Counted from the first letter of the stretch, positions 31,750-63,244 are shown. The stretch: 64,000 nt of DNA from Methanobacteriota archaeon (GCA_048634345.1 JAIWAP010000001.1:48-64047), one strand, 5' to 3'. The notes: generated by a model from the letters alone, not told the origin. Numbers and translations: made by a program.

Positions 31750-31917
31750 AGTAAAAACTGCCCTCCGGGTCGGAAGCCAGTTTTTGATCAAACTTTTGTG
31801 AAAAGTTTGGTGAAAAGTTTGCGAGTAAGAAATGCCCTCCCAGGTCGGAGACCAGTTTTTGATCAAACTTTTGTGAAAAGTTTGGTGAAAAGTTTGCGAG
31901 TAAGAAATGCCCTTCAG
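31749..31917. repeat. Tandem repeat, 75-bp period, ~2.2 units
   Basis: Unit CCAGTTTTTGATCAAACTTTTGTGAAAAGTTTGGTGAAAAGTTTGCGAGTAAGAAATGCCCTCC.AGGTCGGAGA starts at 31777 and again at 31852, with a partial unit before. Each unit holds the palindrome AAACTTTT-GTG-AAAAGTTT and a 12-bp direct doublet GTGAAAAGTTTG x2. Confidence 0.85.
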
Positions 31918-35900: not shown

Positions 35901-37594
35901 CAAGAACAATTCCAACAGAGGAGGCTTATGCGATCGGGAGAGAGACGATGGACGCGCTTCTTGTGGATTACTATGAGAGAAACGGCGAATTCCCTGAAAA
36001 GGTCGCATTCGTCCTCTGGGGAATAGAGACGATGCGCAATCACGGTATTCCTCACGCCCAGATGCTCTATCTCATGGGCGTTGAACCAATATGGAAGGCT
36101 GATGGCAAGATCCTCTATTACAGCAAGCCAAAAGTAGAGAATCTGAAAATAATCGACACATCCAATCTGACGATACAGTTGACCGATGGAACAGTGATCA
36201 CGCGTCCGAGAATTGATGTTATAGGTCACAGCTCTGGCTTGCACCGGGATCAGTTCCCATGGCAGATGAAGCTTCTTGACGATGCGGTCAGGATCGTTTC
36301 GCAGTTGAACGAGTCCGAGGATATGAACTATGTGCGGAAGCACTCCCTTGCGCTGAAGGCGTACTACATGGAACTTATGGAGTCCATGAATGTAACCGTG
36401 GACGAGGAAGAAGCCGAGAAGTTATCGATGTCACGACTATTCGGACCGCCTGAGGGCGATTACGGCGTAAGAATTGCAGATGCAACATGGGCAAGCGATA
36501 CATGGGAGAATACGGACCGGATTGCGGATCAATTCATCGAACGCTCAGGAAATGTGTATATTGATGGAGAAATGTATACAAGCCCCCTTATTTCAGGCGT
36601 AGAGGTCTTCAAAGCAGCCATAAAGGATACTGATATCTCAGTATTCATAAGAAGCAGCAATCTCTACGGCGTTCTGGACGGTGATGATCCGTTCCAGTAC
36701 TTCGGAGGATTGAGTCTGGCGATTGCCCGGGTAAGTGATGGTGAACGTCCTGAGATGTGGATAACGAATGCAAGGAATATCGGCAATCCACGGATGCAAA
36801 CGCTGAGCGAATTTATGAATATGGAGATGCGGACACGCATGTTAAATCCAAATTACATAAAGGGCATGATGGAGCACGGTTATGCCGGAGCCGGGAAGCT
36901 TTCAGACCATCTGGCGAACCTCTTTGGCTGGGATGTTGTGGATACGAGATTCGTTGATGCTGCCGACTGGAACGAGGTGTACGAGGTGTATATCCTGGAT
37001 AAATACGATCTCGGAACCAAAGACTGGTTTGATGAGAACAGTCCATGGGCACGTCAGGAGATGATGGCAAGAATGCTCGAAGCTGCACGGAAGGATTTCT
37101 GGGAGCCATCGGATGAACTGAAAGCAGCACTTGCCGAAGAATACCAGCAATCGGTCGAGAAATATGGGCCCTGCTGCTGTATGGTCTGCTGCGGAAATCC
37201 GCTGCTTGATACGTACATGAAGGATATAACAAAGGCATATTCAGAGTCTCCTCAGAGCAGCGGGACCTATTCGGAGCATCAGAGCAGCAGTAGCGGTAAC
37301 AGAGACAGCACATACCCGCCCGAGCCTTCCGAAGACGGGGCAACGAATCAGACGACAACGTCATCTTCGCGAGCAGGTGTCGGGATAACCGGAGATGTGG
37401 TGCCGGAGCCACCCGCGGAAACCAGCAAACCCAGCGATACCAGTGACGCCCCAGATACGGTTGAAGGACAGGTGATGACCGAGATGAAGACCTCTTCATC
37501 GCTGCCGATATCCGGTGCGCCGCTGATGGCAATCGTTGCGGTGGTTGCAATCCTCGGACTGATCGGTACAGGGCTATGGCTTAAACGCAAATAG
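32927..37594 (+). CDS. CobN/Mg-chelatase-H-family protein, predicted exported and C-terminally anchored (CobN-like 1)
   Basis: 1555 aa. CobN signature block ALDAKYIMPAVGGDVLRTPDVLPTGRNFYSFDPRTIPTEEAY. Signal-peptide-like N-terminus (PLLVAVLFMALLIVPLSATAQP) and many N-x-S/T sequons. C-terminal Cys cluster GPCCCMVCCGNP, then an S/T/P-rich linker, a hydrophobic helix and KRK. Confidence 0.85.
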   Translation: MTRNYMQDVRSFAPIPLLVAVLFMALLIVPLSATAQPEENRIIFVLGTDENKDSLYNASASTTLEVEIYNASVAMSKDFSNESVVFLASLDNETVSSINQTMNRSAHVFAYNLSSEIDIGNVVDVNITNYWEAGGDVRMLHLITYLGAKFYDLQTVDVLFILQEGTIHRYYLEEVMKEYTLANTTISLTIYNRDQAAENNLTSFDIIALYHVTYLPSVQTKLDEADNTSKTIWLSKSTSLWDVNVPQSTGKHAYDKYWTPSGIENHRRILTYLAVTLLDADEEIKPGINLPRSGIFHPDYKSEFQPCKDCLFQNLSSYMEWYTDTGKYHPENPTVGLTLSGYYYANGYYLDDWIAIVREFENRSVNVIPILDGTDIREFFFDETENATVDIVLSYMGTFHGSKAFNLSSISERKEVIARLGVPWLNCITTGQTPVEWANSTIGIPTSYIGWAVALQELEGLIEPIVIGGSVLDEITNSNMKIPIPGRASYVVNRTLMWTDLKYMNNSEKRIALIYYSYPPGKSEIGASYMDVPRTLEVLLNEMDGAGYDLGGNFTRYNISDRNDTLSNNGSIVAKLITQGRNIGAWAQDDVDELARSGAIVLVPEDDYLQWFNEFPDDMRDVVIKDWGEPPGDQMVYTAPNGSRYIVIPCIKYGNVLLAPQPYRGYQNSEKLLYHNSSLPPNHQYIAFYLWLKKGFDASALVHIGTHGTLEWLPGKQVGLDSRSWSEALIQDFPNPYIYIVDNVGEGTQAKRRSYSVIIDHATPPFIPSGLYGNYSNLHQAIHHYLLAKENGNAPLMSGYKNTSIGIIKDTHIDEDLGINISYDVSFDDFEAMVVAGPVHDYLHEMMYTNMPYGLRIFANPIPDESAVALVRGMLGDEYIQDIHAVNASCDSHDVEEFNKTESYRLLYRVLVDGVNITDAQNEILGNSSADVSADLAIAREYYQNILASSPNEIKSLLDALDAKYIMPAVGGDVLRTPDVLPTGRNFYSFDPRTIPTEEAYAIGRETMDALLVDYYERNGEFPEKVAFVLWGIETMRNHGIPHAQMLYLMGVEPIWKADGKILYYSKPKVENLKIIDTSNLTIQLTDGTVITRPRIDVIGHSSGLHRDQFPWQMKLLDDAVRIVSQLNESEDMNYVRKHSLALKAYYMELMESMNVTVDEEEAEKLSMSRLFGPPEGDYGVRIADATWASDTWENTDRIADQFIERSGNVYIDGEMYTSPLISGVEVFKAAIKDTDISVFIRSSNLYGVLDGDDPFQYFGGLSLAIARVSDGERPEMWITNARNIGNPRMQTLSEFMNMEMRTRMLNPNYIKGMMEHGYAGAGKLSDHLANLFGWDVVDTRFVDAADWNEVYEVYILDKYDLGTKDWFDENSPWARQEMMARMLEAARKDFWEPSDELKAALAEEYQQSVEKYGPCCCMVCCGNPLLDTYMKDITKAYSESPQSSGTYSEHQSSSSGNRDSTYPPEPSEDGATNQTTTSSSRAGVGITGDVVPEPPAETSKPSDTSDAPDTVEGQVMTEMKTSSSLPISGAPLMAIVAVVAILGLIGTGLWLKRK

Positions 37595-37768: not shown

Positions 37769-38368
37769 ATGGAAAGAAATAATACGGTAAATCTGCTGAT
37801 TGCAGCACTGGTAATGGCGCTCTTGATCGTGCCGCTGTCAGTGGCTGCAGAATCGGGAAACATTACCGCACTTGCGAATACGACCTCTGATGAGAACGGG
37901 AACTACACATTCACAAACCTCCCCGCAGGGGATTACGTCATAAACGTGGCATACTACACGCCCGCGATGGGTGGCAAATGGTTCACAGGGCGTACGTATA
38001 CCAGTGTCGGCGATGGAGAAGATCGAAGCGATGTTGAGGTATGTCTGACCTTCGGAAGCGAGGCGGATGCAAACAATATACGGAACGCAAGCATTGATTC
38101 GAGCAGCCCCTCTGGCACCTCAACGATCTCGGGGCAGACACTTGCACACAAGATGGGGGGCGAGGTTGTGGCGATGACGAACGCAACAGTTATCATAAGC
38201 AGCTACCTCAAGGGCGACCTCGATTGTGACGGTCGTCTCACGTCGATAGATGCGCTCATAGCCCTTCAGATGAGTGTTGGGTCTCGCGAATCTAACCATG
38301 TGGGCGACATGAATTTCGATGGGGCGGTCACATCGCTGGATGCGCTCATGATCTTACAGGCGGTGTAG
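37769..38368 (+). CDS. Secreted protein: CarboxypepD_reg-like module + type-I dockerin
   Basis: Signal-like N-terminus (LLIAALVMALLIVPLSVAAES). Module TSDENGNYTFTNLPAGDYVINVAY... Two dockerin EF-hand-like repeats, GDLDCDGRLTSIDALIALQ and GDMNFDGAVTSLDALMILQ (nt 38213-38365). Confidence 0.75.
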   Translation: MERNNTVNLLIAALVMALLIVPLSVAAESGNITALANTTSDENGNYTFTNLPAGDYVINVAYYTPAMGGKWFTGRTYTSVGDGEDRSDVEVCLTFGSEADANNIRNASIDSSSPSGTSTISGQTLAHKMGGEVVAMTNATVIISSYLKGDLDCDGRLTSIDALIALQMSVGSRESNHVGDMNFDGAVTSLDALMILQAV

Positions 38369-38373
38369 CCACG

Positions 38374-41300
38374 ATGAAAAAAAACACGCTAAACCGCGGC
38401 ATAACACCCATACTACTGATCGCAGCACTGATCGTGGCGTTTTCGGTTGTGCCGCTGCCCGCAACCGCACAACCCGGGAACATGACCGTGCTTGCGAAAA
38501 CGACCTCTGATGAGAACGGAAACTACACATTCTCCAATCTCACCACCGGAAATTACACGATCGACGTGGCATACTACACACCCGCGATGGGCGGCACATG
38601 GTTCACAGGAAGCACGAACGCCAGTTTGGGTGATTGCGAGGATCTCACAGGAACAGATGTGTGGCTCTCCTTCGGAAGTGAGGAAGATGCGATCGAGATC
38701 GTGAATGCGACAGTAAATTCGAGTGGCATGGCTGGCACTTCAACGATCTCAGGGCAGACACTTGCACACGGCATGGGCGGTGCGACGACTGTTATGACCA
38801 ATGCAACTGTCGTCCTGATAAAGGTGGACGAGTCAGGAGATGACGGCTCCGCCGATGATGATGACAGTGATCTGCCATTGGCAGATGGACTTGTTCTGCC
38901 AGCACCAAACATGGCAACCGGTGCGGACGGAGCGTTCGCGTTCACCAATCTGCCTGCAGGCAACTACACGATAACTGCGCTGTCCGGAGATGCGATCGGA
39001 AATATCAGCGTGGAAATGGGCGCAGGAGCGCACATAAGCGATCTTGAGATCTGGCTGAACGATACCGCTGACGGTGCGACTGCAGACGCCACCAGAAACG
39101 CGACATACAACAATTCGGGAGGCTCGTATGGCACCGGCTCAATCTCTGGCAGGGTGTGCAACATCACCACTGGAGACTCTGCTCTTGTCACAATCACGAG
39201 CTACACCGGAGATGGGAATCTCGGAAGCGTGAATATAGAGCCAAAGATGGTGTTCATCCTCTCATCACCTGGCGACGTCTTCTTAGCCAGAAAATCGGCG
39301 GCGAGCATCGGTCTGAATATAAGCGTGTACGATAGTCACGGAGTCCCTCCGGATCTCAATCTGACGACGTATGACGTGATCTTTGCAGTGCACCTGACAA
39401 CAAAATCGATCCAGGACGTGCTCGTGCCGCTGATTGAGGCTGCAAATGAGAGCGGCGTTACAGTGATCTGCACGGATCCTGACCACCTGACAAACGTCAA
39501 TCTCACCGAGCACCCATACATCATGGAGTACTGGGAGAGCCGCAACGATAGGAACATGGAACGACTTTTAGTCTATCTCGGTTGCAAGTTCTGCGGTCTT
39601 TCCGGTCTTATCGAAGAGCCGATAATCACTCCCGGCGACGGAATATACCATCCCGATGCTGATCCTGATACTGGCAGAGTCTTTGAGAACTTAACCGAGT
39701 ATCTCCAGTGGTACAACGAGGATGCCGGGGATCATCACGTCTACAATCCGGATAACCTGACAATAGGAATCGTATTCTGGAAGTCACGGTCCGGGACCGG
39801 TGAGATTGGTGTTGTGGACGCGCTCATCAGGGATGCAGAGGCGCGAGGAGCAAACGTAATCCCGGCATTCCAGCCATTCCTGCTCTTTGAAGAGAACCTG
39901 ACCATGATGTTTATGGATGGCAACGAGTCCGCTGTCGATGTCATGATCGATCTCGGGCTCGGGATGGGTCCGCTCACTGTGATGGTTAAGAAGCGGGAGT
40001 ATCTCGAACTGATGAACGTTCCTGTCATGAAATGCATCGAACTCTACACGACAATCGAGGAATGGGAGAACGAGACAACCGGAAAAGACGGTTACTTCAA
40101 TATGCAGATCCCGGTGATGGAGATTGCAGGCGAGATCGAGTTCATCGTTGTCGGCGGGAGGGTGTACAATGCGACATACAACGTCGAGATCATTGAGCCA
40201 ATCGACTATCAGATAGAGTGGGCTGTCGATCGTGCACTCTCGTGGGGCAGTCTGCGTCACACAGAGAACAGCGAGAAGAGGGTTGCGATCCTCTACTATC
40301 ACCACTCCGTTGGAAACGGAAGCGCTCTTGCCGCAGCAAATCTCGATGTTGCGCCAAGCATCGTTAACATCCTTCATGCGATGAATGATTCGGAACAGGG
40401 CTACACACTCGGCGATGAGATACCGACTGATAAGGAACTCCTGGATATGGTGCTCTCGCAAGGCAGGAATATCGGGGTATGGGTTCCTGACCAGATCAAG
40501 AATGTCGCTGAGAACTATGATGTTGCGCTCGTTTCAGAGGAGGAGTACCTGACATGGTTCGAGAAACTTCCGGAAAAGAAGAGAAACGAGGTTACGGCGC
40601 GGTGGGGCGAGCCTCCTGGCAGGATCATGGTCTATGAGAACGAATCCGGCAAATACCTCGTGATTCCGAAGATAACGCTTGGAAACATCTTGATTGCGCC
40701 GCAGCCATCACGCGGGGCAGAGCAGAATATGACCGCTCTTTACCATGATCAGTCAGTTCCGCCGACGCATCAGTACATCGCATTCTACTACTGGCTGAAC
40801 CACGTCTATGAGGCTGATGCTATCGTTTCGATGGGCAGGCACGGAACACAGGAATGGTTGCCCGGAAAAGGCGTTGGCTTGTCAGTGAGGGACTGCTGGC
40901 CCGCAATCTTGATTCAGGATATGCCTGTTGTGTACCCCTACGAGGTGGAGGGCGTCGGAGAAGGTATCGTTGCGAAGAGGCGGGGCAGTGCAGTCATGAT
41001 CGACCATCTGACACCCGTTATCGTCGCAGCAGGGCTCTACGGGAATCTATCGAATCTTGAACAGACGATACCGCTCTACGAGCAGGAAGAGAACGGCACG
41101 CTCAAGGAGAAGTACAGAGAGCAGATTATGGATATGTGCCGCGACCTGAATCTCGGCTGGGATCTGGGCGTTGATCTGGATGAGATCGCTGCATCGAACG
41201 ACACCGTCTTTGAGGAGTTTCTCGAGGAGGTGCACGACTATCTCCTTGAGATTAAGAGGGAGTACATGCCTTACGGCTTACATATCATGGGCAAGCAGCT

Positions 41301-43680
41301 CTCCAACGATAGTCTCGTGGATATGACCAAATCGATTCTTGGTTATGATTTCAGAGAGTACATCGAGAAGACAAACATTACCGAGAACCAGACGAGAATG
41401 CTCCTCTGGGAAGTTATTGTCAACGAAACAACTCCTGATGATGCGCAGAAGAGTGTGCTTGGGTGGTCAGAGAACGCAACCGATCCTGAATCAGGAAAAA
41501 GGGTAGTTGCGAAGACAATCTCCGATGAGAACGGAAACTACACGTTCTCCAATCTCACCGCCGGAAATTACACGATCGATGCGGCGTACTACACCCCAGC
41601 GATGGGCGGCACATGGTTCATTGGAAGCAACGACACGAACCTGAACGATGGAGAGCATCCGGACGGGCTCGACGTGTGGCTAACATTCGGAAGCGAGGAG
41701 GATGCGCTTGAGATTGTGAATGCAACCGTTGATTCAGGCGGCGTCTCTGGTACTTCGACGATCTCGGGGCGGACGCTTGCTGAGGGCATGGACGGAGTGA
41801 TGACGATGGATAACTCAACAGTCGTCCTGCGCAGAACGGATTCAGACGAGGAGCCGGCAGAGACGCCACTCACAGACTTCCTGAACCTCGCAATCGAGTA
41901 TGCAGATAACCTCCGGGACTGCGAAATCGAGATACCAAAGACGCTTGATGCACTCGAAGGAAAATACATCATGCCGGGACCGAGTAACGATCCGATCAGA
42001 AACCCGGATGTGCTGCCGACCGGCAGGAACTTCTATGGCTTCGATCCGAATATCGTGCCGACCGAGGCTGCGTGGGAGGTTGGGTGCGAACTGATCGACC
42101 AGTTGCTCTCGTTGTATTCGAACGGAACCGACGAGAGCTACCCAAAGAAGGTCGGATTTGTCCTGTTTTCAGCCAATACGATGAAGGACCTGGGCGTGCT
42201 CGAGTCAGAGATATTTTACCTCCTTGGTGTGGAGCCGGTCTGGGACAACAGCAACAACATCCACGATGTCAAGCTCATACCAACAGAGAAGCTTGGGAGA
42301 CCGAGAATCGATGCCGTTGTCACGATGAGCGGCATATACCGGGAGAATTGGCCCCGCCAGATCGAACTGATCAACAAGGCGGTTCGCTTAGCCTCTGAAG
42401 CGGATGATTTCCCGCATCACCGGAACTTTGTCAATGAGAGCACCCAGCGGACATACGACTGGTTAATCGAGCACAATTACACCGAAGAACAGGCGCGGGA
42501 TCTCTCGTTGATCCGGATCTTCGGACCTCCAGAGGGCGTCTGGGGTGTCGGCGGACTCACATCAGCGATCGCCGGAACCGGCACGTGGGACAGCGAAGAA
42601 ACGATAGCAGACCTCTACATCAGGAATATGGCTAATGTGTACGGCGACACGATCTGGGGCGAGCAGTACGTCGATCTCTTCAAGCAGAATCTCGCTGGGA
42701 TCGAGGTTGCGGTCTTTAGCTGGACATCGCATTCCCACAGCGTGCTTGGAATCGATCACACCTTCGAGTTCTTCGGGGGCTTAAGCATGGCGATCCGAAG
42801 CGTATCAGGTGAGTCGCCTGATATGTATATTAACAACCTCAAGAACCCTGGCGGCGCAAAACTGGAGACGCTGCAGCACGTCTTGATGAGGGATCTGCGT
42901 TCGATGTACTACAACGAACTCTGGATCAAGGGTATGATGGAGCATGGCTACGCAGGTGCAGGATCGATGTCTACGATCATGTCAAACCTCTGGGGCTGGC
43001 AGGTCACAAACCCGGACATCATAACCGACGAGATGTGGAATACGATGTACTCGATCTATATGCAGGACGAGTACGATCTTGGGCTTACGGATTGGCTCAA
43101 TGAGAACAATGCGTGGGCACGCCAGGAGATGATGGCACGGATGATTGAGTCGACACGGATGCTTGATTCCGAAGGAAACCCGTACTGGAATCCATCCGAT
43201 GAGATAAAAGCGGCTCTTGCACAGGAGTACCAGCAATCGGTCGAGAAATACGGACCCTGCTGCTGCATTGTCTGCTGCGGAAATCCGATGATTGATACGT
43301 ACGTGAAGGGGCTGCTTCAGCCGGGCGCAGAACCCGGGCATCAGAGCAGTAGCAGTAGCAGTAGCAGCGGAAGCGGCACATATCCTGCAGACTGGAGTAA
43401 AGCGGATGCGGGCGCAACGAATCAGACAGAAACATCGTCGCAATCGTCGTCTTCGCCAACAGGTGTCGGGATAACCGGGGATGCGGTTCCGGAACCACCA
43501 TCGGAAACCAGTAAGCCCAGTGACGCAAGCGACGCTCCGGATAAGGTCGAAGGAAAAGTGATGACCGAGATGCAGACATCATCCTCGCTGCCGATATCGG
43601 GTGCACCGCTGATGGCGATCGTTGCGGTGATCGTGATCCTCGGACTGATCGGCTCAGGGTTGTGGCTTAAACGGAGATAG
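38374..43680 (+). CDS. CobN/Mg-chelatase-H-family protein, predicted exported and C-terminally anchored, with three CarboxypepD_reg-like modules (CobN-like 2)
   Basis: 1768 aa. CobN block ALEGKYIMPGPSNDPIRNPDVLPTGRNFYGFDPNIVPTEAAW. Signal-like N-terminus (ILLIAALIVAFSVVPLPATAQP). Two N-terminal modules and one mid-protein module, GPCCCIVCCGNP, a poly-Ser/S-T-P linker, a hydrophobic helix and KRR. Starts 5 nt after the dockerin gene stop. Confidence 0.85.
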   Translation: MKKNTLNRGITPILLIAALIVAFSVVPLPATAQPGNMTVLAKTTSDENGNYTFSNLTTGNYTIDVAYYTPAMGGTWFTGSTNASLGDCEDLTGTDVWLSFGSEEDAIEIVNATVNSSGMAGTSTISGQTLAHGMGGATTVMTNATVVLIKVDESGDDGSADDDDSDLPLADGLVLPAPNMATGADGAFAFTNLPAGNYTITALSGDAIGNISVEMGAGAHISDLEIWLNDTADGATADATRNATYNNSGGSYGTGSISGRVCNITTGDSALVTITSYTGDGNLGSVNIEPKMVFILSSPGDVFLARKSAASIGLNISVYDSHGVPPDLNLTTYDVIFAVHLTTKSIQDVLVPLIEAANESGVTVICTDPDHLTNVNLTEHPYIMEYWESRNDRNMERLLVYLGCKFCGLSGLIEEPIITPGDGIYHPDADPDTGRVFENLTEYLQWYNEDAGDHHVYNPDNLTIGIVFWKSRSGTGEIGVVDALIRDAEARGANVIPAFQPFLLFEENLTMMFMDGNESAVDVMIDLGLGMGPLTVMVKKREYLELMNVPVMKCIELYTTIEEWENETTGKDGYFNMQIPVMEIAGEIEFIVVGGRVYNATYNVEIIEPIDYQIEWAVDRALSWGSLRHTENSEKRVAILYYHHSVGNGSALAAANLDVAPSIVNILHAMNDSEQGYTLGDEIPTDKELLDMVLSQGRNIGVWVPDQIKNVAENYDVALVSEEEYLTWFEKLPEKKRNEVTARWGEPPGRIMVYENESGKYLVIPKITLGNILIAPQPSRGAEQNMTALYHDQSVPPTHQYIAFYYWLNHVYEADAIVSMGRHGTQEWLPGKGVGLSVRDCWPAILIQDMPVVYPYEVEGVGEGIVAKRRGSAVMIDHLTPVIVAAGLYGNLSNLEQTIPLYEQEENGTLKEKYREQIMDMCRDLNLGWDLGVDLDEIAASNDTVFEEFLEEVHDYLLEIKREYMPYGLHIMGKQLSNDSLVDMTKSILGYDFREYIEKTNITENQTRMLLWEVIVNETTPDDAQKSVLGWSENATDPESGKRVVAKTISDENGNYTFSNLTAGNYTIDAAYYTPAMGGTWFIGSNDTNLNDGEHPDGLDVWLTFGSEEDALEIVNATVDSGGVSGTSTISGRTLAEGMDGVMTMDNSTVVLRRTDSDEEPAETPLTDFLNLAIEYADNLRDCEIEIPKTLDALEGKYIMPGPSNDPIRNPDVLPTGRNFYGFDPNIVPTEAAWEVGCELIDQLLSLYSNGTDESYPKKVGFVLFSANTMKDLGVLESEIFYLLGVEPVWDNSNNIHDVKLIPTEKLGRPRIDAVVTMSGIYRENWPRQIELINKAVRLASEADDFPHHRNFVNESTQRTYDWLIEHNYTEEQARDLSLIRIFGPPEGVWGVGGLTSAIAGTGTWDSEETIADLYIRNMANVYGDTIWGEQYVDLFKQNLAGIEVAVFSWTSHSHSVLGIDHTFEFFGGLSMAIRSVSGESPDMYINNLKNPGGAKLETLQHVLMRDLRSMYYNELWIKGMMEHGYAGAGSMSTIMSNLWGWQVTNPDIITDEMWNTMYSIYMQDEYDLGLTDWLNENNAWARQEMMARMIESTRMLDSEGNPYWNPSDEIKAALAQEYQQSVEKYGPCCCIVCCGNPMIDTYVKGLLQPGAEPGHQSSSSSSSSGSGTYPADWSKADAGATNQTETSSQSSSSPTGVGITGDAVPEPPSETSKPSDASDAPDKVEGKVMTEMQTSSSLPISGAPLMAIVAVIVILGLIGSGLWLKRR

Positions 43681-43690
43681 CCGGAGGATT

Positions 43691-44395
43691 ATGCCAGACA
43701 CAACCAACTTAATCGCATTCGGCGTTCTGATCGGAGTCGCAGTCCTTGCCCTGAAGACGGGGCTTGGCTGCGGTTTCGCCAGCCTGAAATGGAAAGAGGT
43801 CGTCTATCTTGCGACCGTCTATCTCGTGATGTCGATCGTTATGGGCTACCTTGTCGGGGTTATTCCGCTCGATCTGACGCAGAACATCCTTGCTGCAGGC
43901 GTTACGATGCATCTCATCATCGCAACCGGGCTGCTTTACTTCGGAGTCCACACAAAGAGGAAGTGGATATCCGGCGGGTGCGACATCTCGAGAAAGACGT
44001 TTCTCTGGCTCTCCCTCCCCTGCCCGGTCTGCATGGTCGCGCTCTTTCTTGCGTGTACTGTTCTTGCAGGTGCGATTGACAAAAGCAATATCGTGATCGG
44101 CGCAATGGTGGGCGTGGTCTTCTTTGCAGGCATCTGTTTATCCGCACTCTCGATTGCGTTTCTTGCAGGGAGATTCGGATGCAGGGACCCGTCAGCACTT
44201 GGAACAGCGATGATACTCTTCGGGCTTTTCTACCTGCTATCACCGCTCATAATCCCTGCGTACATGCAGGCTCAGACGGTTCCAATGCCTGGCATCCCGA
44301 TTGATATGGGCGAGACGCTTCTCTCGTCTGCGCTGATGGCTACACTTGGCATAATCGGCTTCGCGGGGTACAGATACAGACGGTCGAATGATTGA
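43691..44395 (+). CDS. Polytopic membrane protein (DUF2162-like 'predicted transporter') with intramembrane CPVC motif
   Basis: 234 aa, ~6-7 hydrophobic helices. SLPCPVCM (CPVC at nt 44021-44032) lies inside a helix. Starts 10 nt after CobN-like 2, with GGAGG. The DUF2162 assignment rests on size and topology from memory and needs an HMM check. Confidence 0.6.
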   Translation: MPDTTNLIAFGVLIGVAVLALKTGLGCGFASLKWKEVVYLATVYLVMSIVMGYLVGVIPLDLTQNILAAGVTMHLIIATGLLYFGVHTKRKWISGGCDISRKTFLWLSLPCPVCMVALFLACTVLAGAIDKSNIVIGAMVGVVFFAGICLSALSIAFLAGRFGCRDPSALGTAMILFGLFYLLSPLIIPAYMQAQTVPMPGIPIDMGETLLSSALMATLGIIGFAGYRYRRSND

Positions 44396-44441: not shown

Positions 44442-45059
44442 ATGGACATATCTTCAGGAATATTTGGAACGATGTTTATGATCTCGAATACGCTGCTTTA
44501 TCCGGTGGTCCTCATCCTGCTCGGACTGATCGCATGGTCGTTTGTCTCGACAGGGCAGTTCATATCCGAGTACACATCGAGAAACAGGGACGCGAAAAGG
44601 CTCAAGGCGGGTTGCAGGGATACGAGGGCGAAGATTGAGAATGGTGATCCAAACGGGGCGGCAGCAGTGCTCACGGCTAGTGGATCGAACAATCTCTTAA
44701 AGAAGTTCATAAAAGAGATCTCAGAGATTCTCGGTGCAGGAAATTTTCCGGTTGAGGCAGAGAAGCTGCTTCAGGACTACGAACTGAAAATTGCCGATGA
44801 ACTGATGCATGTGAGACTGGTGGCACGAATTGGTCCGATGCTTGGGCTTATGGGGACGCTGATCCCAATGGGTCCTGCGCTGATGGGCTTATCATCAGGG
44901 AACATCCAGCAGCTTGCAGCAAATCTGGTGATCGCATTCTCAACAACGGTTCTCGGTCTTCTGGCTGGCGGGGTGGCTTACAGCATCCTCTTAATCAAGA
45001 AGAAGTGGTATACGCAGGACTTAAGCGACATGGAGTATGTTGTGGAGGTCTTGAAGTGA
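44442..45059 (+). CDS. MotA/TolQ/ExbB-family proton-channel protein
   Basis: 205 aa. C-terminal block IGPMLGLMGTLIPMGPALMGL....LAANLVIAFSTTVLGLLAGGVAY matches the MotA_ExbB signature. Confidence 0.8.
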   Translation: MDISSGIFGTMFMISNTLLYPVVLILLGLIAWSFVSTGQFISEYTSRNRDAKRLKAGCRDTRAKIENGDPNGAAAVLTASGSNNLLKKFIKEISEILGAGNFPVEAEKLLQDYELKIADELMHVRLVARIGPMLGLMGTLIPMGPALMGLSSGNIQQLAANLVIAFSTTVLGLLAGGVAYSILLIKKKWYTQDLSDMEYVVEVLK

Positions 45060-45394
45060 GATCAACCCGGAAGCGGATCGTTCTGGACGACGAGGAGGAT
45101 CCGCTGGGTGGCGTTGCAAACCTCTTTGATGCCGCGATGGTCTTTGCTGTCGCGCTCCTTGTTGCGCTTGTTGTCTCCTACAACGTGCCGGAACTGCTTG
45201 ACGCTGATGCGAGCGTAACAATCGTCAAGAACCCGGGAGACCCGAATATGCAGGTGATAATCAAGGATAAGGAGACGATAAAGGTTATGAATATGACCGA
45301 GCAGCTCATGGGTGGTCAGGGGTCAAAGATCGGGACTGCGTACCGGCTGGAGACCGGAGAGGTGATATATATGCCCGAGAATGAGACCGGATGA
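45056..45394 (+). CDS. Small single-TM protein, ExbD/TolR-analogous position (DUF2149-like)
   Basis: A GTG start at 45056 overlaps the MotA-like stop (GTGA). Layout: basic N-terminus, one TM helix (LFDAAMVFAVALLVALVV), then a ~70-aa extracytoplasmic tail. The family name is from memory. Confidence 0.55.
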   Translation: MRSTRKRIVLDDEEDPLGGVANLFDAAMVFAVALLVALVVSYNVPELLDADASVTIVKNPGDPNMQVIIKDKETIKVMNMTEQLMGGQGSKIGTAYRLETGEVIYMPENETG

Positions 45395-46038: not shown

Positions 46039-47001
46039 TTATCTCATTCGCCTTGCCATGTATGCTGCTATACCTGCAACGGTCAGCAACATCGCCCCAA
46101 ATCCGGGTGTGGCATCTTCTCCAGTTGCCGCGCCTTCCTCTGGCGCTGCCGCCGTCTCTGTTGTCTCTGCCGTCCCGGTTGGTTCGGTTGTTGCAGCCGG
46201 TGTGGCAGTCATATCCGGAGCCACTGTGGCACTGCTTGAAGGGTGGCAGACCGAACAGTCCAGTCCGCGCTGCGTCGGCGGTACCACCGTGATCAGGTGC
46301 AGCCCTGTCAGGTTATGGCAGTTGCTGCACGGGGGCAGGATTACCTTGCCCTCTGGCATGTGGCAGCCATCACAGGTTGCCAGATCCGGCAGATGAATCA
46401 GGTGCGGAATCACGTCCGGTTTCAGCTCCCGTTCTTCAGTGTTGCCTTCAGGTCTGTGGCACATGTAACAGATCGATGAATCGGTCTCTTCACCGTGAAG
46501 ATGCACCAGATCGTCATACGCGTGGCAATCCTGACACAGGATGGTCACTCCGGCGTGCTGGACCGGCTTCACGATGTTTGGCGCGGTCTTGTGGCAGGCT
46601 TCGCATCCGTTATGCACATCCACGAGATCACGGTGGCAGTGTGCGCACACTGTAGTGTCAAGGATCTCGCTGTTGTGGTGTGTGTTGATATCACCATGGC
46701 AGTACGAACAATCCTCGGTCTTCACCTTTGCGATGTGTGCATCATGAATCGTGCCGCCGTGGCAGTTTTCACACTGCGGGATCGCAATCTCCAGTGCCTC
46801 TCCGTGACAGGCTTCACAGGTCACCCGGTTCTGATTCATCACCTCTTCATGGAGGGTGTGTGGTGACCCGGGGTGACACTTTGTACAGTCAACATCCTGG
46901 GTCTTCAGTGCGAGCGTATCAAACTGCACCTCAGAAAAAACCATCGGGATGCTTGAAATCAGCAGAATAAGCGTTGAGAGCAATATCAGTGTTTTTCTCA
47001 T
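46039..47001 (-). CDS. Multihaem c-type cytochrome (11 CxxCH) with PGF-CTERM archaeal sorting signal
   Basis: Signal peptide MRKTLILLSTLILLISSIPMVFS. 11 CxxCH motifs counted. A T/P/A/E-rich linker is followed by ATPGFGAMLLTVAGIAAYMARRMR at the C-terminus. Confidence 0.85.
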   Translation of the reverse strand: MRKTLILLSTLILLISSIPMVFSEVQFDTLALKTQDVDCTKCHPGSPHTLHEEVMNQNRVTCEACHGEALEIAIPQCENCHGGTIHDAHIAKVKTEDCSYCHGDINTHHNSEILDTTVCAHCHRDLVDVHNGCEACHKTAPNIVKPVQHAGVTILCQDCHAYDDLVHLHGEETDSSICYMCHRPEGNTEERELKPDVIPHLIHLPDLATCDGCHMPEGKVILPPCSNCHNLTGLHLITVVPPTQRGLDCSVCHPSSSATVAPDMTATPAATTEPTGTAETTETAAAPEEGAATGEDATPGFGAMLLTVAGIAAYMARRMR

Positions 47002-59890: not shown

Positions 59891-62800
59891 TTACATTGGT
59901 CTTAAATCGATGGCAAACGCACCTCTATAGTTGAATGCTATATTAAACTCCACATCCTGTCTTAAATATACTTCTCTTTTTTGAGCAAGTGGGTTAAATT
60001 TTATGTCATAACCGATCTCTTCAGATACTACGTATGCCTCCCTTTTAGACATAAATTTCGAAGTATATCCTTTAAACTTTATATCTTCTTTATTAGAATC
60101 CTTAGCCACTCTCTTAATCCCACTTGTATAAGGGTGGTCATAACTTTTTTCATTCAGTTCTTTGAAAAATGTCTTTGATGTATTATATTCTCCGCGCTCA
60201 AAGGATATCACACCCAACTCGAAAAGCAATTTCAATTCCGAGCAATTTCCATCAAACGTTTCATATCTTTCAAGAAGTAGTTCATAGATTCTTTCTACAT
60301 TATCAGGTTCGATTTCTATGGTTATATAATATTTCATCTTTAAGAGATCCTGATTTTTTTCGGATATTCTTAATCCCTCTTCCACATAAAATAAGGTTTG
60401 ATCGAGGAGTTCTTCATATTTCGATAGATCTCTTCGATGCTTTTTTGTTTCATTAAATATAAATCTACTCATGAGAATATATCCACTTATTGCATGAGGT
60501 GCATCATCAATAAATAACAAGAGTTTGTTCTTTGCCGTATTGAAATCACCAAATTTTTCATTATAAATCTTTGATTCTAGACTGACTATTGATTCAAGCT
60601 CATAATTAGCAATTGATTCTTTTGCTTCTTCGATAACTTCTAATGCTTCTGAATAATATTTATATGCATCTTCCGTTTGTTCAATGTGATCATAATACTC
60701 TCCTCTTTTAAATGAAGAATATGCTTGCGAGTGATAGGGGTACATATTCATAACACCTTTCATCTTGGAAGATTTAAAATAGAAATTAGCTCGGTCATAT
60801 AACTCTAATGCAGTATCAAAATCATCTGATAGATTGTTTAATGCTTCTTTTGAATATAGAACTCCCAAAGAGTTTAATATGACCGTTTCTGAATCCCTCC
60901 CCAAACTTCCTCCCCTGTATTTCCTTGAACTACTTAATGATCTATTTAACAAAATTTTCGCCTTCTCAAAATTTCCTTTATCTCTCTCAAGGATTCCATA
61001 ATGATGAAGAATGGTGCTATCTTCTATGCCTTTGCTCAGAATAGCGTCGTAGAGTTTTATCAAATGTTCTTCATCTATTTTCCCCTTGTCAACGCCGTTA
61101 GGTCCCAAATATTTGACCAAAAGCGATCTAACAATCTCCATCTCAGTTCGATCCAATGCTCTGACTTCTGATAAGACTTCTACATATCTTCCAACCATCG
61201 TCTCCAATTGTTCTTTATTAATCGGATCGAATAATTTTTCAACTATTTTTTGCGCAACTATCTTATTCTTTGTCCTATAGAACAAGTCTCCAGCAATAGT
61301 TTCATCTAACTCAATTATGAGCGACTTAGCTTCTGTTTCATATATATCTTCTAAAAATTCACGATAAGAATAATTGAATATCTTTTGTAGTGGACTAACT
61401 ATCATCTCCAACTTTAATGGCATATCATACTGATAAAAGAGACAGACATATTCATAGGCGCGTTTAGTTGGCTCCGATGGTAGCTTTTTATACTCATCCC
61501 ACAGTATTTCGTTTAACTTCCTTCTTGCTGGATCGACCAAGCCGTATATTATAGCAAAAAAATCGCTTTCATAGTCGGTCAGCGATTTAGCAGCCCAAAA
61601 GGGTAAATCGGCTAAAAACTCTTCATGATTCAGTAACTTTCCCAGATGTTTAATCAGACGCGTAATTTCTCCTTCATCCATTTCCTGGGGAATTTCAAAT
61701 ATATTACTATCTGATATAATCGCTCCAAATCCCCACTGCTGTTTGGAATATTCCCATTCATTGGGACGCGCCGCTCCGACTATAACTACAGGTCTGGAAT
61801 GATTTTTAAGATAAATAAGCATCTTTTTTACATTATCTATATTAGCATCTATATTATCAAATATTATTACAACTTTATGTATTTCTTCTACTGATTCGGA
61901 TTTCGAATTCACATCTTGGCAGAACTTATCGATAAGTTTGTAATCAAAGAAGCTCAGATGACTGTTGAGTACTATTACGGGATTGCCAGCTTCGTATAAG
62001 TCGTATGCCAACCTCTTAAGTAAGATCGATTTACCTAAACCGCCTCCACCCAATAGAAGAATTGCATCATTATCTTCTGGTCTATTTTCATTTACCTCGT
62101 ATTCCACCCTCTTCTTCACCTCAAAATAAATATCTCGCTTAAAATCCCATCCTTTTTTAAAAGCTTCCCAATTTTCAGATTGTCCCTTTAGGAATCTCTC
62201 AATTCGCTTTTCTTCTGTTAATCCTTCTTCAATTTTTCCTTTTTGTAAATCCTCCTCGCTAACGATCTTAAAATATTCTTCAAACTCTTTATATTCTCGA
62301 TAAGGAACTTTTACATCCCCATATTTCAATTTAAGTGATATATTAGCAGTTTTTCCTTCTGTATGAGCTGTCATTGCAGGATTTTTCCCCAATTCATTAA
62401 TAAACTCCTCGAAAGTAAGTGGTATTGGTACAATGTTTCGCTTATTGAGAAGTCTTTCGATTTTTGACCCGCGTTCGAGAGTCGGTATCAGTGCAAACGA
62501 GTTATCCATCCTATCACCGAGCTGTTTGCGCAATTCGTCTATCAATTCGACGACTATCCTATCTTTGAAGCTATAACCAATGTATAATACCGCACCATCA
62601 TGAACAAAACTGGAGAAAGTTTCTAACATCTTTCTTCTACTGTCTGATCTATTATTGTAATCTGTTCTTGTTAATACAGGAGATTCACCGGGATCGTCCC
62701 TTCTAACATCTCCCATTAGTTTAAATAGGTGAATTTCATCCCTTTTATTGAAGTTATATGGAACATCACCTCTAATTGTTGGTTTACATATTCGTGCAGT

Positions 62801-63244
62801 CTCTTCATTTTCACCATAATATTCTTCAAACGTCTTTTCGATTAGATCGTCATAATTAGTTGTAAAAATTACAGGCCACGGGTACTGGGGGATGGTTAGA
62901 TGAGCATCATTTGGTTTTAAACCATAGAATATTTTCCCGATGTGCCGTTCTAATGCACGTCTTTGCCCATTCTCTTCTATTTCCTGGCAAATATCAAGTA
63001 GGTTATATCCAATATCTTCAAAATCCACATCAGCGAACTTTTCTTTTATTAGATCAACCAATTCTTTTCCAGATAGGGAACCAGAGCCGATAGATGCACC
63101 TGCGCCTATGAAAAGTGCGATTTCTCCATCCATAATTTTCCTTAACAGATTTTGCAGCGATTTTTTTTCAGGAGATGTTAACGATTGTATATCGGACTTA
63201 TTTTCAACCGCACGTTTTCTTTGTTTCTTCAACTTTTTTGGCAT
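59891..63244 (-). CDS. SIR2-like domain - STAND P-loop NTPase - helical/TPR-like repeat protein (Avs5/SIR2-STAND-type defence candidate)
   Basis: 1117 aa. SIR2_2-type motifs IALFIGAGASIGSG, VIFTTNYDDLIE, LFKLMGDV. Walker A LLLGGGGLGKS (~aa 398-406), Walker B VVIIFDNID. The C-terminal ~500 aa are helical repeats. The gene is strongly AT-rich relative to its flanks. Confidence 0.8.
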   Translation of the reverse strand: MPKKLKKQRKRAVENKSDIQSLTSPEKKSLQNLLRKIMDGEIALFIGAGASIGSGSLSGKELVDLIKEKFADVDFEDIGYNLLDICQEIEENGQRRALERHIGKIFYGLKPNDAHLTIPQYPWPVIFTTNYDDLIEKTFEEYYGENEETARICKPTIRGDVPYNFNKRDEIHLFKLMGDVRRDDPGESPVLTRTDYNNRSDSRRKMLETFSSFVHDGAVLYIGYSFKDRIVVELIDELRKQLGDRMDNSFALIPTLERGSKIERLLNKRNIVPIPLTFEEFINELGKNPAMTAHTEGKTANISLKLKYGDVKVPYREYKEFEEYFKIVSEEDLQKGKIEEGLTEEKRIERFLKGQSENWEAFKKGWDFKRDIYFEVKKRVEYEVNENRPEDNDAILLLGGGGLGKSILLKRLAYDLYEAGNPVIVLNSHLSFFDYKLIDKFCQDVNSKSESVEEIHKVVIIFDNIDANIDNVKKMLIYLKNHSRPVVIVGAARPNEWEYSKQQWGFGAIISDSNIFEIPQEMDEGEITRLIKHLGKLLNHEEFLADLPFWAAKSLTDYESDFFAIIYGLVDPARRKLNEILWDEYKKLPSEPTKRAYEYVCLFYQYDMPLKLEMIVSPLQKIFNYSYREFLEDIYETEAKSLIIELDETIAGDLFYRTKNKIVAQKIVEKLFDPINKEQLETMVGRYVEVLSEVRALDRTEMEIVRSLLVKYLGPNGVDKGKIDEEHLIKLYDAILSKGIEDSTILHHYGILERDKGNFEKAKILLNRSLSSSRKYRGGSLGRDSETVILNSLGVLYSKEALNNLSDDFDTALELYDRANFYFKSSKMKGVMNMYPYHSQAYSSFKRGEYYDHIEQTEDAYKYYSEALEVIEEAKESIANYELESIVSLESKIYNEKFGDFNTAKNKLLLFIDDAPHAISGYILMSRFIFNETKKHRRDLSKYEELLDQTLFYVEEGLRISEKNQDLLKMKYYITIEIEPDNVERIYELLLERYETFDGNCSELKLLFELGVISFERGEYNTSKTFFKELNEKSYDHPYTSGIKRVAKDSNKEDIKFKGYTSKFMSKREAYVVSEEIGYDIKFNPLAQKREVYLRQDVEFNIAFNYRGAFAIDLRPM

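Follow-up and report, generated by a model that had tools for sequence, protein, structure and literature searches.

Analysis of 64,000 nucleotides (nt) of DNA from a Methanobacteriota archaeon (GCA_048634345.1, JAIWAP010000001.1:48-64047), a stretch hereafter called the window, revealed between 32.9 and 45.4 kb a gene cluster in which copies of one protein module of about 115 residues recur within and next to a large chelatase-like protein. The window comes from an archaeon of the ANME-2 (anaerobic methanotrophic archaea, group 2)/Methanosarcinales lineage. The cluster lies throughout on the + strand and encodes, in this order, CobN-like 1, a secreted protein of 199 amino acids (aa), CobN-like 2, and proteins of the DUF2162, MotA/ExbB and DUF2149 families (Table 1). 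CobN-like 1 possesses a signal peptide and a C-terminal membrane anchor, and has neither a module nor an insert in its domain IV. CobN-like 2 is made of a signal peptide, two N-terminal modules, a chelatase-like body with one mid-protein module, and a C-terminal membrane anchor. The copies in the 199-aa protein, behind the signal peptide of CobN-like 2 and in the middle of CobN-like 2 are referred to below as A, B and C.

A preliminary description of the window had reported these three segments as similar at the nucleotide level, and searches carried out with tblastn, blastn and MAFFT in the sense frames bear this out. When each copy was compared by tblastn with the whole 64-kb window, A, B and C matched one another with 59-72% aa identity (E 1e-36 to 7e-50), a divergent fourth copy was matched at 38887-39153 (E 2e-4 to 7e-7), and beyond these four copies there was no match better than E=1.4. 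Nucleotide identity among the three is 71-77% over 274-327 nt (blastn, E 5e-35 to 2e-66), and their MAFFT protein alignment contains 61 invariant columns. The divergent module described earlier behind the first copy of CobN-like 2 (GADGAFAFTNLPAGNYTITAL) is real as well, being recognized by the module hidden Markov model (HMM) at aa 177-278 with an independent E-value of 4.8e-8. Chance or low-complexity similarity of the copies was considered and rejected. Synonymous divergence (dS), estimated by the Nei-Gojobori method from a codon alignment, reaches 0.92-1.04 for all three pairs, with a nonsynonymous to synonymous ratio (dN/dS) of 0.19-0.33; a dS near saturation together with such ratios indicates that the copies are old and that purifying selection acts on their sense frame. 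With aa identities of 57-70%, the three segments are genuine and ancient paralogous copies of one module. Three antisense open reading frames (ORFs) ending in VNH(L/V)PPIAGV are present, as had been noted before. Each of them reads the conserved TPAMGGxWF stretch in reverse and is thus a by-product of the repeat; that they could be real genes was ruled out, given the purifying selection on the sense frame.

Table 1. Features of the module-bearing cluster, with coordinates in the window
Feature	Position	Strand	Evidence
CobN-like 1, 1555 aa	32927..37594	+	Pfam CobN-Mg_chel 1037 bits; best PDB match HmuS 9d26, 457.7 bits
199-aa secreted protein: signal peptide, module copy A, type I dockerin	37769..38368	+	Pfam Dockerin_1
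Module copy A (in the 199-aa protein)	37856..38206	+	Alignment, tblastn, blastn, module HMM
Type I dockerin domain, two Ca-loop repeats DLDCDGRLTSIDA and DMNFDGAVTSLDA	38216..38365	+	Pfam, sequence
CobN-like 2, 1768 aa, HmuS-like class-I chelatase homologue	38374..43680	+	Pfam CobN-Mg_chel 1068 bits; best PDB match HmuS, E 4.9e-147
Module copy B, N-terminal, right behind the signal peptide of CobN-like 2	38476..38836	+	Alignment, tblastn, blastn, module HMM
Fourth, divergent module copy, aa ~172-278 of CobN-like 2, parted from copy B by an acidic linker	38887..39207	+	tblastn, HMM
Module copy C, within the CobN body of CobN-like 2 (domain IV by homology), near the place of the HmuS Met-rich insertion	41494..41852	+	Alignments, module HMM
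DUF2162 membrane protein	43691..44395	+	Pfam PF09930, 173 bits
MotA/ExbB-family protein, family of HmuU	44442..45059	+	Pfam PF01618, 35.1 bits; PMC11681262
DUF2149 protein, family of HmuV	45005..45394	+	Pfam PF09919, 108 bits; PMC11681262
Antisense look-alike ORFs ending in VNH(L/V)PPIAGV (repeat by-products, not genes)	37954-38196, 38574-38963, 41589-41972	-	ORF map

A kinship of the module with CarboxypepD_reg had been proposed. It holds for the copies taken together as one related module, although single copies are sub-threshold. Compared with CarboxypepD_reg in their native frame, single copies gave partial matches of 24.7-26.6 bits, under the gathering score of 32.3, in which only the first ~30-60 residues took part, and with SdrD_B they scored 27.5-28.0 bits for a cutoff of 29.7; for the whole of CobN-like 2, where the copies are summed, the scores (56.7 bits for CarboxypepD_reg and 57.9 bits for SdrD_B) are both above the cutoff. 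The part matched by Pfam is a hairpin, T-S-D-E-N-G-N-Y-T-F-x-N-L-x-x-G-N-Y. An AlphaFold2 model of the module in its native frame, built from a 38-copy alignment, has eight strands and one helix and a mean predicted local distance difference test score (pLDDT) of 89.4, and a Foldseek search of the PDB with this model gave no meaningful match (best E 0.07, probability at most 0.23, template modelling (TM) score at most 0.31). The C-terminal segment of the module, ISGxTL....ATVVL, resembles the first two strands of CarboxypepD_reg, and for this reason a circular permutation was tried. The canonical strand order, with strands A and B before the T-D-x-x-G-x-Y hairpin, fails in the module, where the ISGxTL...ATVVL segment comes after the hairpin part; in the canonical-frame domain of a Bacteroides receptor, strands A and B precede the TSDENGNY hairpin.

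Once re-permuted, all three window copies gained 3-7 bits, to reach 30.5-31.5 bits with SdrD_B, which passes the cutoff, and 30.0-31.9 bits with CarboxypepD_reg, just under it. The Pfam alignments, which natively start at profile position ~28 (and run to ~56), then start at ~12-14. Among the 38 copies, those matching CarboxypepD_reg at E<=1e-5 went from 19 in the native frame to 34 in the permuted one, and those matching SdrD_B from 22 to 31. A model of the re-permuted frame was obtained from the natural junction of two tandem copies in a CobN-like 2 relative (P0002) with a nine-row alignment (pLDDT 86.4). Its Foldseek matches are the SdrD B domains B1/B2, PA1324, UafA and CnaB-type pilins (E 1.5e-4 to 1e-3, probability 1.00, TM 0.47-0.57), joined by GBS52, BcpA and CnaB2 (E 1.5e-4 to 1e-2 for the full set) and, as weaker neighbours, by Zcp and CueP, which bind metals in the periplasm (E 6e-3 to 1e-2).

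Judging from these models and profiles, the module seems to be a circularly permuted form of the prealbumin-like β-sandwich found in CnaB, SdrD-B and CarboxypepD_reg domains. Its usual first strands (ISGxTL....ATVVL) would come last, and the helix together with an extended linker would act as a crossover joining the old C- and N-termini. A cut at the former B-C hairpin would set the new termini side by side, and a unit with adjacent termini would lend itself both to insertion into a loop and to N-terminal arrays. Arrays of canonical repeats, such as those of protein P0119, are a plausible evolutionary source of the permuted module. With the B domains of SdrD and UafA and the CnaB pilins, which it resembles in fold after re-permutation, the module has in common the hairpin motif T-D-x-x-G-x-Y-x-F-x-x-L-x-x-G-x-Y; these domains are repeated stalk or spacer units of surface proteins, as the N-terminal modules would be. 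Unlike them, the module is predicted to be permuted with a helix-containing crossover, can be inserted within an enzyme body and belongs to an archaeal host.

Such an insertion is provided by copy C, which is flanked in CobN-like 2 by DAQKSVLGWSENATDPESG (aa 1023-1041) and PAETPLTDFLNLAIEY (from aa 1161). The flanks DAQKSVLGWS... and ...LTDFLNLAIEYADNL correspond to DAQNEILGNSS followed directly by ADVSADLAIAREY, uninterrupted in CobN-like 1. The preliminary description was thus right in taking the third copy for an insert that CobN-like 1 lacks, and a comparison with insert-free homologues showed that the mid-protein segment does not belong to all CobN homologues: it is also absent from P0020/P0021, from the outgroups P0027/28, and from the solved CobN and ChlH, CobN of Mycobacterium tuberculosis (7C6O) aligning continuously across the site. 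In HmuS, a disordered Met-rich insertion of ~120 residues (residues 780-898) is carried by domain IV on the ‘dorsal’ face, away from the membrane (PMC12583661). The conserved block that follows restarts at residue 922 of HmuS, which corresponds to aa 1175 of CobN-like 2 and aa 942 of CobN-like 1. Since the module ends at aa 1160, module and Met-rich insertion would lie at the same place within about a dozen residues, so that copy C seems to occupy roughly the place of the Met-rich insertion in domain IV. The mid-protein insert would be exposed at the surface.

The comparison with HmuS is justified by the affinity of the host proteins. Within the class-I chelatase superfamily formed by CobN, ChlH and HmuS, both CobN-like proteins are by sequence nearest to the haem de-chelatase HmuS: the PDB matches of CobN-like 2 rank HmuS (494.9 bits) before CobN (414.6) and ChlH (409), and CobN-like 1 scores 457.7 bits with HmuS vs 388.5 with CobN. 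All nine NCBIfam CobN/BchH equivalog models remained under their cutoffs (the best, NF004645, gave 1237 bits vs 1619), and no ChlI/ChlD/CobST-type or AAA+ partner gene is present in the cluster. With CobN and ChlH, both proteins share the Pfam CobN-Mg_chel domain over the whole body and, by homology, a six-domain architecture. They differ from these cytoplasmic enzymes in being secreted and membrane-anchored, in falling below the equivalog cutoffs and in their lack of ChlI/ChlD/CobST genes in the cluster. Both have hydrophobic N-terminal leaders and C-terminal ...PLMAIVAVIVILGLIGSGLWLKRR tails, and HmuS of Bacteroides thetaiotaomicron, of the Bacteroidota (9D26/9P4S), has membrane helices at both ends (PMC12583661); it resembles them in these anchors, in a body placed outside the cytoplasm and in having no AAA+ partner encoded nearby.

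Several HmuS residues are kept. His-538 of HmuS is conserved (in CobN-like 2 within MGRHG, aa 820-824), and in CobN-like 2 DHTFE (aa 1461-65), aligned to HmuS 1208-1212, retains His-1209 and Glu-1212. At this position CobN-like 2 reads GIDHTFEFFGG (42748-42780, aa 1459-1469) and CobN-like 1 GDDPFQYFGG (36680-36709, aa 1252-1261). The DHxxE pattern is found in all module-bearing homologues that reach the motif (P0001-26; the truncated P0006 ends before it), whereas CobN-like 1 has DDPFQ (aa 1253-57) as in CobN and ChlH, and the outgroups have D-D-x-x-Q/D, of the true-chelatase type. The neighbouring paralogues therefore probably carry out different chemistry. Both CobN-like proteins also contain, immediately ahead of the C-terminal tail, a Cys-rich GPCCC(I/M)VCCGNP motif (37166-37201 and 43252-43287), replaced by CCHHTCGNP in other homologues, which may be a metal site.

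The affinity to HmuS extends to the downstream genes. In the hmuYRSTUV operon, HmuU is of the MotA/ExbB family and HmuV of the DUF2149 family (PMC11681262), and genes of both families follow CobN-like 2, with the DUF2162 gene in the position of HmuT. HmuY and HmuR are absent from the cluster; that there is no hemophore and no TonB receptor, unlike in the HmuS system, is expected for an archaeon without an outer membrane. In CobN-like 2 as in HmuS, domain IV contains a large insertion that is specific to the lineage and immediately precedes the conserved LDAL-G-YI-PGP..DP block. The insertion in proteins of the CobN-like 2 type differs from the disordered Met-rich segment of HmuS in that it would be a folded, glycosylatable β-sandwich present in 0-3 copies, and the archaeal system further differs by its N-terminal module arrays, its dockerin partner and the presence of at least two paralogous genes per cluster.

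The dockerin partner is the 199-aa protein, in which Dockerin_1 is matched at aa 148-196 with 29.7 bits (cutoff 22.9) over two Ca-binding repeat segments. Proteins of ~199 aa combining module and dockerin constitute a conserved family (P0030-P0047), and in four related loci (L001-L004) the gene again sits between genes of the CobN-like 1 and CobN-like 2 types. In P0008, module and dockerin are fused to the N-terminus of a CobN-like 2 orthologue, and in P0014 a dockerin is internal to the CobN protein. A close relative (L032/L033, ERZ25073603 NODE_2, 138.7 kb) has two module+dockerin genes, each upstream of a module-bearing CobN gene. These fusions and this linkage are evidence of the Rosetta-stone type that the small protein works with CobN-like 2. 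The order in L032/L033 is a PQQ (pyrroloquinoline quinone)-propeller-CobN fusion, a CobN gene, a module+dockerin gene of 231 aa, P0023 (a CobN protein with PKD domain and modules), CbiM-CbiN-CbiQ-ABC (ATP-binding cassette) ATPase, a 296-aa ORF, P0001, DUF2162, ExbB and DUF2149, and then genes of a bacteriophage exclusion (BREX) system (BrxL, PglZ). P0001 is an 89%-identical orthologue of CobN-like 2, and a CbiMNQO importer of the energy-coupling factor (ECF) type for Co/Ni is therefore embedded there between two module-bearing CobN genes. In the 296-aa ORF (L032, 9093-9983), the first ~125 residues of a CobN-like 1 orthologue are joined to the module and dockerin of the 199-aa protein, which indicates that a deletion removed nearly all of CobN-like 1 in that genome. 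In ANME genomes, dockerins are common on the binding proteins for metal uptake NikA/OppA and TroA (Chadwick et al. 2022, PMC9012536). As in the dockerin-cohesin assemblies of ANME, a small secreted dockerin protein is encoded here beside metal-related surface proteins; what differs is that this dockerin is joined to the very module that decorates the neighbouring enzyme.

A location outside the cytoplasm is suggested by signal-peptide-like leaders on CobN-like 1, on the 199-aa protein and on CobN-like 2. The density of N-x-S/T sequons is 2.3-3.0 per 100 aa, with 5-6.6 in the modules and 2.25 in CobN-like 1, vs 0-0.7 in the cytoplasmic proteins of the window, and this density, together with the leaders, fits N-glycosylated archaeal surface proteins. 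Along CobN-like 2 (38374-43680) the sequon density is very uneven, which hints at the face of the protein that is exposed.

How the module spread was followed in 28 strong relatives of CobN-like 2, from uncultured ANME-2/Methanosarcinales archaea and from Methanolobus, by mapping copy number with the module HMM on a tree of the CobN body. Family-wide, 0-5 copies are found at the N-terminus and 0-3 at the mid site. Orthologues of the CobN-like 2 type (55-89% identity) each have a single copy mid-protein and 1-5 copies at the N-terminus. In a paralogue clade with 38-42% identity (P0022-26, with Methanolobus sp. WCC1 among its members) the same mid site is occupied by a tandem pair, and there are no copies in CobN-like 1, P0020/21 and the outgroups P0027/28. 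A further CobN homologue of 1740 aa (P0199) has no N-terminal module and three tandem mid-site copies, the most found there. All three positions, at the N-terminus, mid-protein and in the 199-aa protein, are retained in orthologues (P0001-P0017) at 60-89% identity. Full-length matches to the module, when one genome per GTDB species was searched with the 3-copy alignment, come only from metagenome-assembled genomes of Methanosarcinales, and elsewhere the generic hairpin alone is matched; an exhaustive profile search was dominated by giant adhesins with canonical repeats, matching by the hairpin only (profile positions ~4-35), and gave no clean count of the permuted family.

Several cases show how copies come and go. 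P0019 and P0020/21 are 92-100% identical throughout, apart from the presence or absence of exactly one module of ~133 aa and a stretch of 60 residues upstream (82%), and P0002 has gained an additional N-terminal copy, 87% identical to its neighbour, i.e. a tandem duplicate. The mid-protein copy of the window shares only 56% identity with its positional orthologue in P0007 vs 66-69% with N-terminal copies, and a clade uniting the mid copies of the close lineage with the N-terminal and 199-aa types has a bootstrap value of 99%; together these point to at least one ectopic replacement. Unequal recombination and ectopic conversion, acting among copies and from one paralogous gene to another, alter the copy number. 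Domain shuffling is thus real and ongoing in the family, yet the window's own three copies are ancient. Outside the modules, the last 240 nt of the two CobN-like genes (37356-37594 vs 43441-43680), which encode an acidic/Ser-rich tail and the anchor, are 83% identical, and the protein bodies share just 34-45% identity. Tails and leaders are likewise shared by paralogues of other genomes (P0014, P0016 and P0019-21), which suggests gene conversion or homogenisation.

Taken as a whole, the reading that we favour, with a probability of roughly 65%, is that old copies of a permuted, glycosylatable module decorate an HmuS-like extracytoplasmic machine, where they would have a stalk and docking role. 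Stalk formation, docking and metal or tetrapyrrole handling are the most likely functions. A glycosylated stalk linking the catalytic head to the membrane could be built from the N-terminal copies, and the copy in domain IV could project outwards as a knob through which proteins are contacted or substrate is handed over. The stand-alone module+dockerin protein could be an adaptor by which the assembly is held on cohesin-bearing scaffolds at the surface of ANME cells, and the HmuS-like proteins, together with the DUF2162, ExbB-like and DUF2149 proteins, would handle metallo-tetrapyrroles or metals outside the cytoplasmic membrane. The binding, adhesion or decoration role suggested in the preliminary description agrees with the dockerin partner and with SdrD B, UafA and the CnaB pilins as relatives in fold.

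A number of observations weigh against this reading. The re-permuted model splices halves of two adjacent copies, so that it shows the canonical fold to be possible for these strands and does not demonstrate it within a single unit, and the Foldseek E-values, at 1e-4, are modest. The match to the site of the Met-rich insertion is one of co-linear spacing from a conserved block, good to about 10-15 residues, and not a structural superposition; similarly, both structural models are predictions, and exposure of the insert and proximity of the termini are inferred. The haem ligands Met-79 and His-254 of HmuS are not conserved, NGMG and AHGR aligning (phmmer, in a poorly conserved region) with VHLT and GLGM of CobN-like 2, and the Met-rich insertion is absent, with the folded module in its place in CobN-like 2 and nothing there in CobN-like 1. 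Without these ligands and this insertion, the substrate may differ from haem. A search with DUF2162 gave archaeal relatives only, and the literature (DUF2162, COG4827, PG1554) nothing decisive, so that DUF2162 is no more than a possible counterpart of HmuT. Finally, ten large ORFs of the window were scanned, and a cohesin domain was present in none of them.

The history of the copies could also be read as it was in the preliminary description, i.e. as a recent duplication and transposition inside this cluster. Their nucleotide similarity is visible, and recent events have taken place elsewhere in the family, as seen from the P0002 tandem pair and from the indel that separates P0019 from P0020/21. 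But the dS is near one for every pair of copies, all three positions are occupied in orthologues down to ~60% identity with the copies grouping by position, and the mid-site insert is found even in the distant paralogue clades, Methanolobus included, so that we give this scenario hardly any credence. What remains of the earlier claim is shuffling in the family, and neither ‘recent’ nor ‘within the cluster’ can be retained. The permutation, for its part, might be an illusion of register: the domains would be canonical, each assembled in a domain-swapped array from the end of one module and the beginning of the module after it. Tandem canonical and tandem permuted arrays do look identical in sequence, giant canonical-repeat adhesins such as P0119 match the module profile across the unit boundary, and tandem copies can follow one another after a very short linker (KTESGL in P0022-25). 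However, lone copies, namely the mid-protein insert, the copy of the 199-aa protein and the one behind the signal peptide, hold both halves in the permuted order, which a register shift of canonical repeats does not explain, and the lone unit was modelled in its native frame as self-contained. A mere shift of register is therefore very improbable.

As to function, another possibility is that the module captures a ligand, tetrapyrrole or metal, the copy in domain IV feeding substrate to the head/neck or to the central cleft as the Met-rich insertion is proposed to do with haem, and the N-terminal and stand-alone copies raising capture capacity in the manner of a hemophore. The insertion place, about that of the Met-rich insertion, would suit such a role, as would the Y-(Y/x)-T-P-A-M-G-G-x-W loop, strongly conserved even in copies of 32% identity, the presence of Zcp and CueP among the weaker Foldseek neighbours, and the CbiMNQO importer encoded between two module-bearing CobN genes in the close relative. 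However, the residues that are invariant across the 38 copies (only D, G, F, G, Y and G) and those nearly so (T, Y, W, L, I, S, L, G, T and V) look like core residues, with no invariant His, Cys or Met among them, and the Met content is ordinary (3-4%; 4 Met in the 119 aa of the mid-protein copy). Arrays of up to five copies and a heavy load of sequons are typical of stalks, and the best fold relatives are spacer and adhesin B domains. Capture of a ligand is thus unlikely, though it keeps some weight. Bolder still, and harder to credit, is the proposal of a dockerin-tethered salvage machine on the surface of ANME-2 cells, in which HmuS-like de-chelatases would strip Ni, Co or Fe from tetrapyrroles of the environment (F430, corrinoids, haem), the DUF2162, ExbB and DUF2149 proteins (with an adjacent CbiMNQO importer in some genomes) would receive the metal or macrocycle, and the module, as a folded and modular replacement for the disordered Met-rich loop, would capture substrate or dock a partner.

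The surroundings of the cluster contain a few other elements. Upstream, the intergenic stretch that separates the genes for ribosomal protein S15 and a flavodoxin contains a direct repeat of 74-75 nt in two tandem copies, 96% identical (31765-31913), matched by no Rfam family; the Rfam scan also revealed no riboswitch near the cluster, a single tRNA being the only match in the window. About 650 nt downstream of the cluster, the opposite strand (46039-47001) encodes a multihaem cytochrome c, in which 11 CxxCH motifs are accompanied by a linker rich in Thr, Ala, Glu and Pro and by a hydrophobic tail at the C-terminus. The left end of the window contains a DDE transposase of the ISAzo13 family (387-1610), and near the right end a protein with SIR2, STAND NTPase and tetratricopeptide repeat (TPR) parts (59891-63244), preceded by KAP/AAA and TPR proteins, lies in a low-GC stretch (34% at 60-62 kb), which has the look of a defence island.

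ANME-2 archaea need very large amounts of Ni for F430, of Co for corrinoids and of Fe for multihaem cytochromes, and little is known of how they acquire these metals in sulfidic sediments. Many archaeal homologues of unknown use are mentioned in the study by which HmuS was recognized as a haem de-chelatase. The present locus would represent one archaeal branch of HmuS-like proteins, extracytoplasmic, with HmuS-type cleft residues kept and with a folded domain, in 1-3 copies, in place of the Met-rich insertion, and this branch has links to dockerins as well as, in a relative, to a CbiMNQO transporter. Beyond what the preliminary description contained, the analysis brings the apparent circular permutation, the dockerin of the 199-aa protein and the affinity to HmuS of the host proteins and of the downstream genes; new are a seemingly permuted domain of the CnaB/CarboxypepD_reg type and an archaeal extracytoplasmic HmuS-like protein that carries it at about the HmuS insertion site. 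The module looks like a clear natural example of a bead-on-a-string domain that, once permuted, could become insertable into the loop of an enzyme, and if methane-oxidising archaea do possess a surface machine for the salvage of metals or tetrapyrroles, the significance of the finding would be all the greater.

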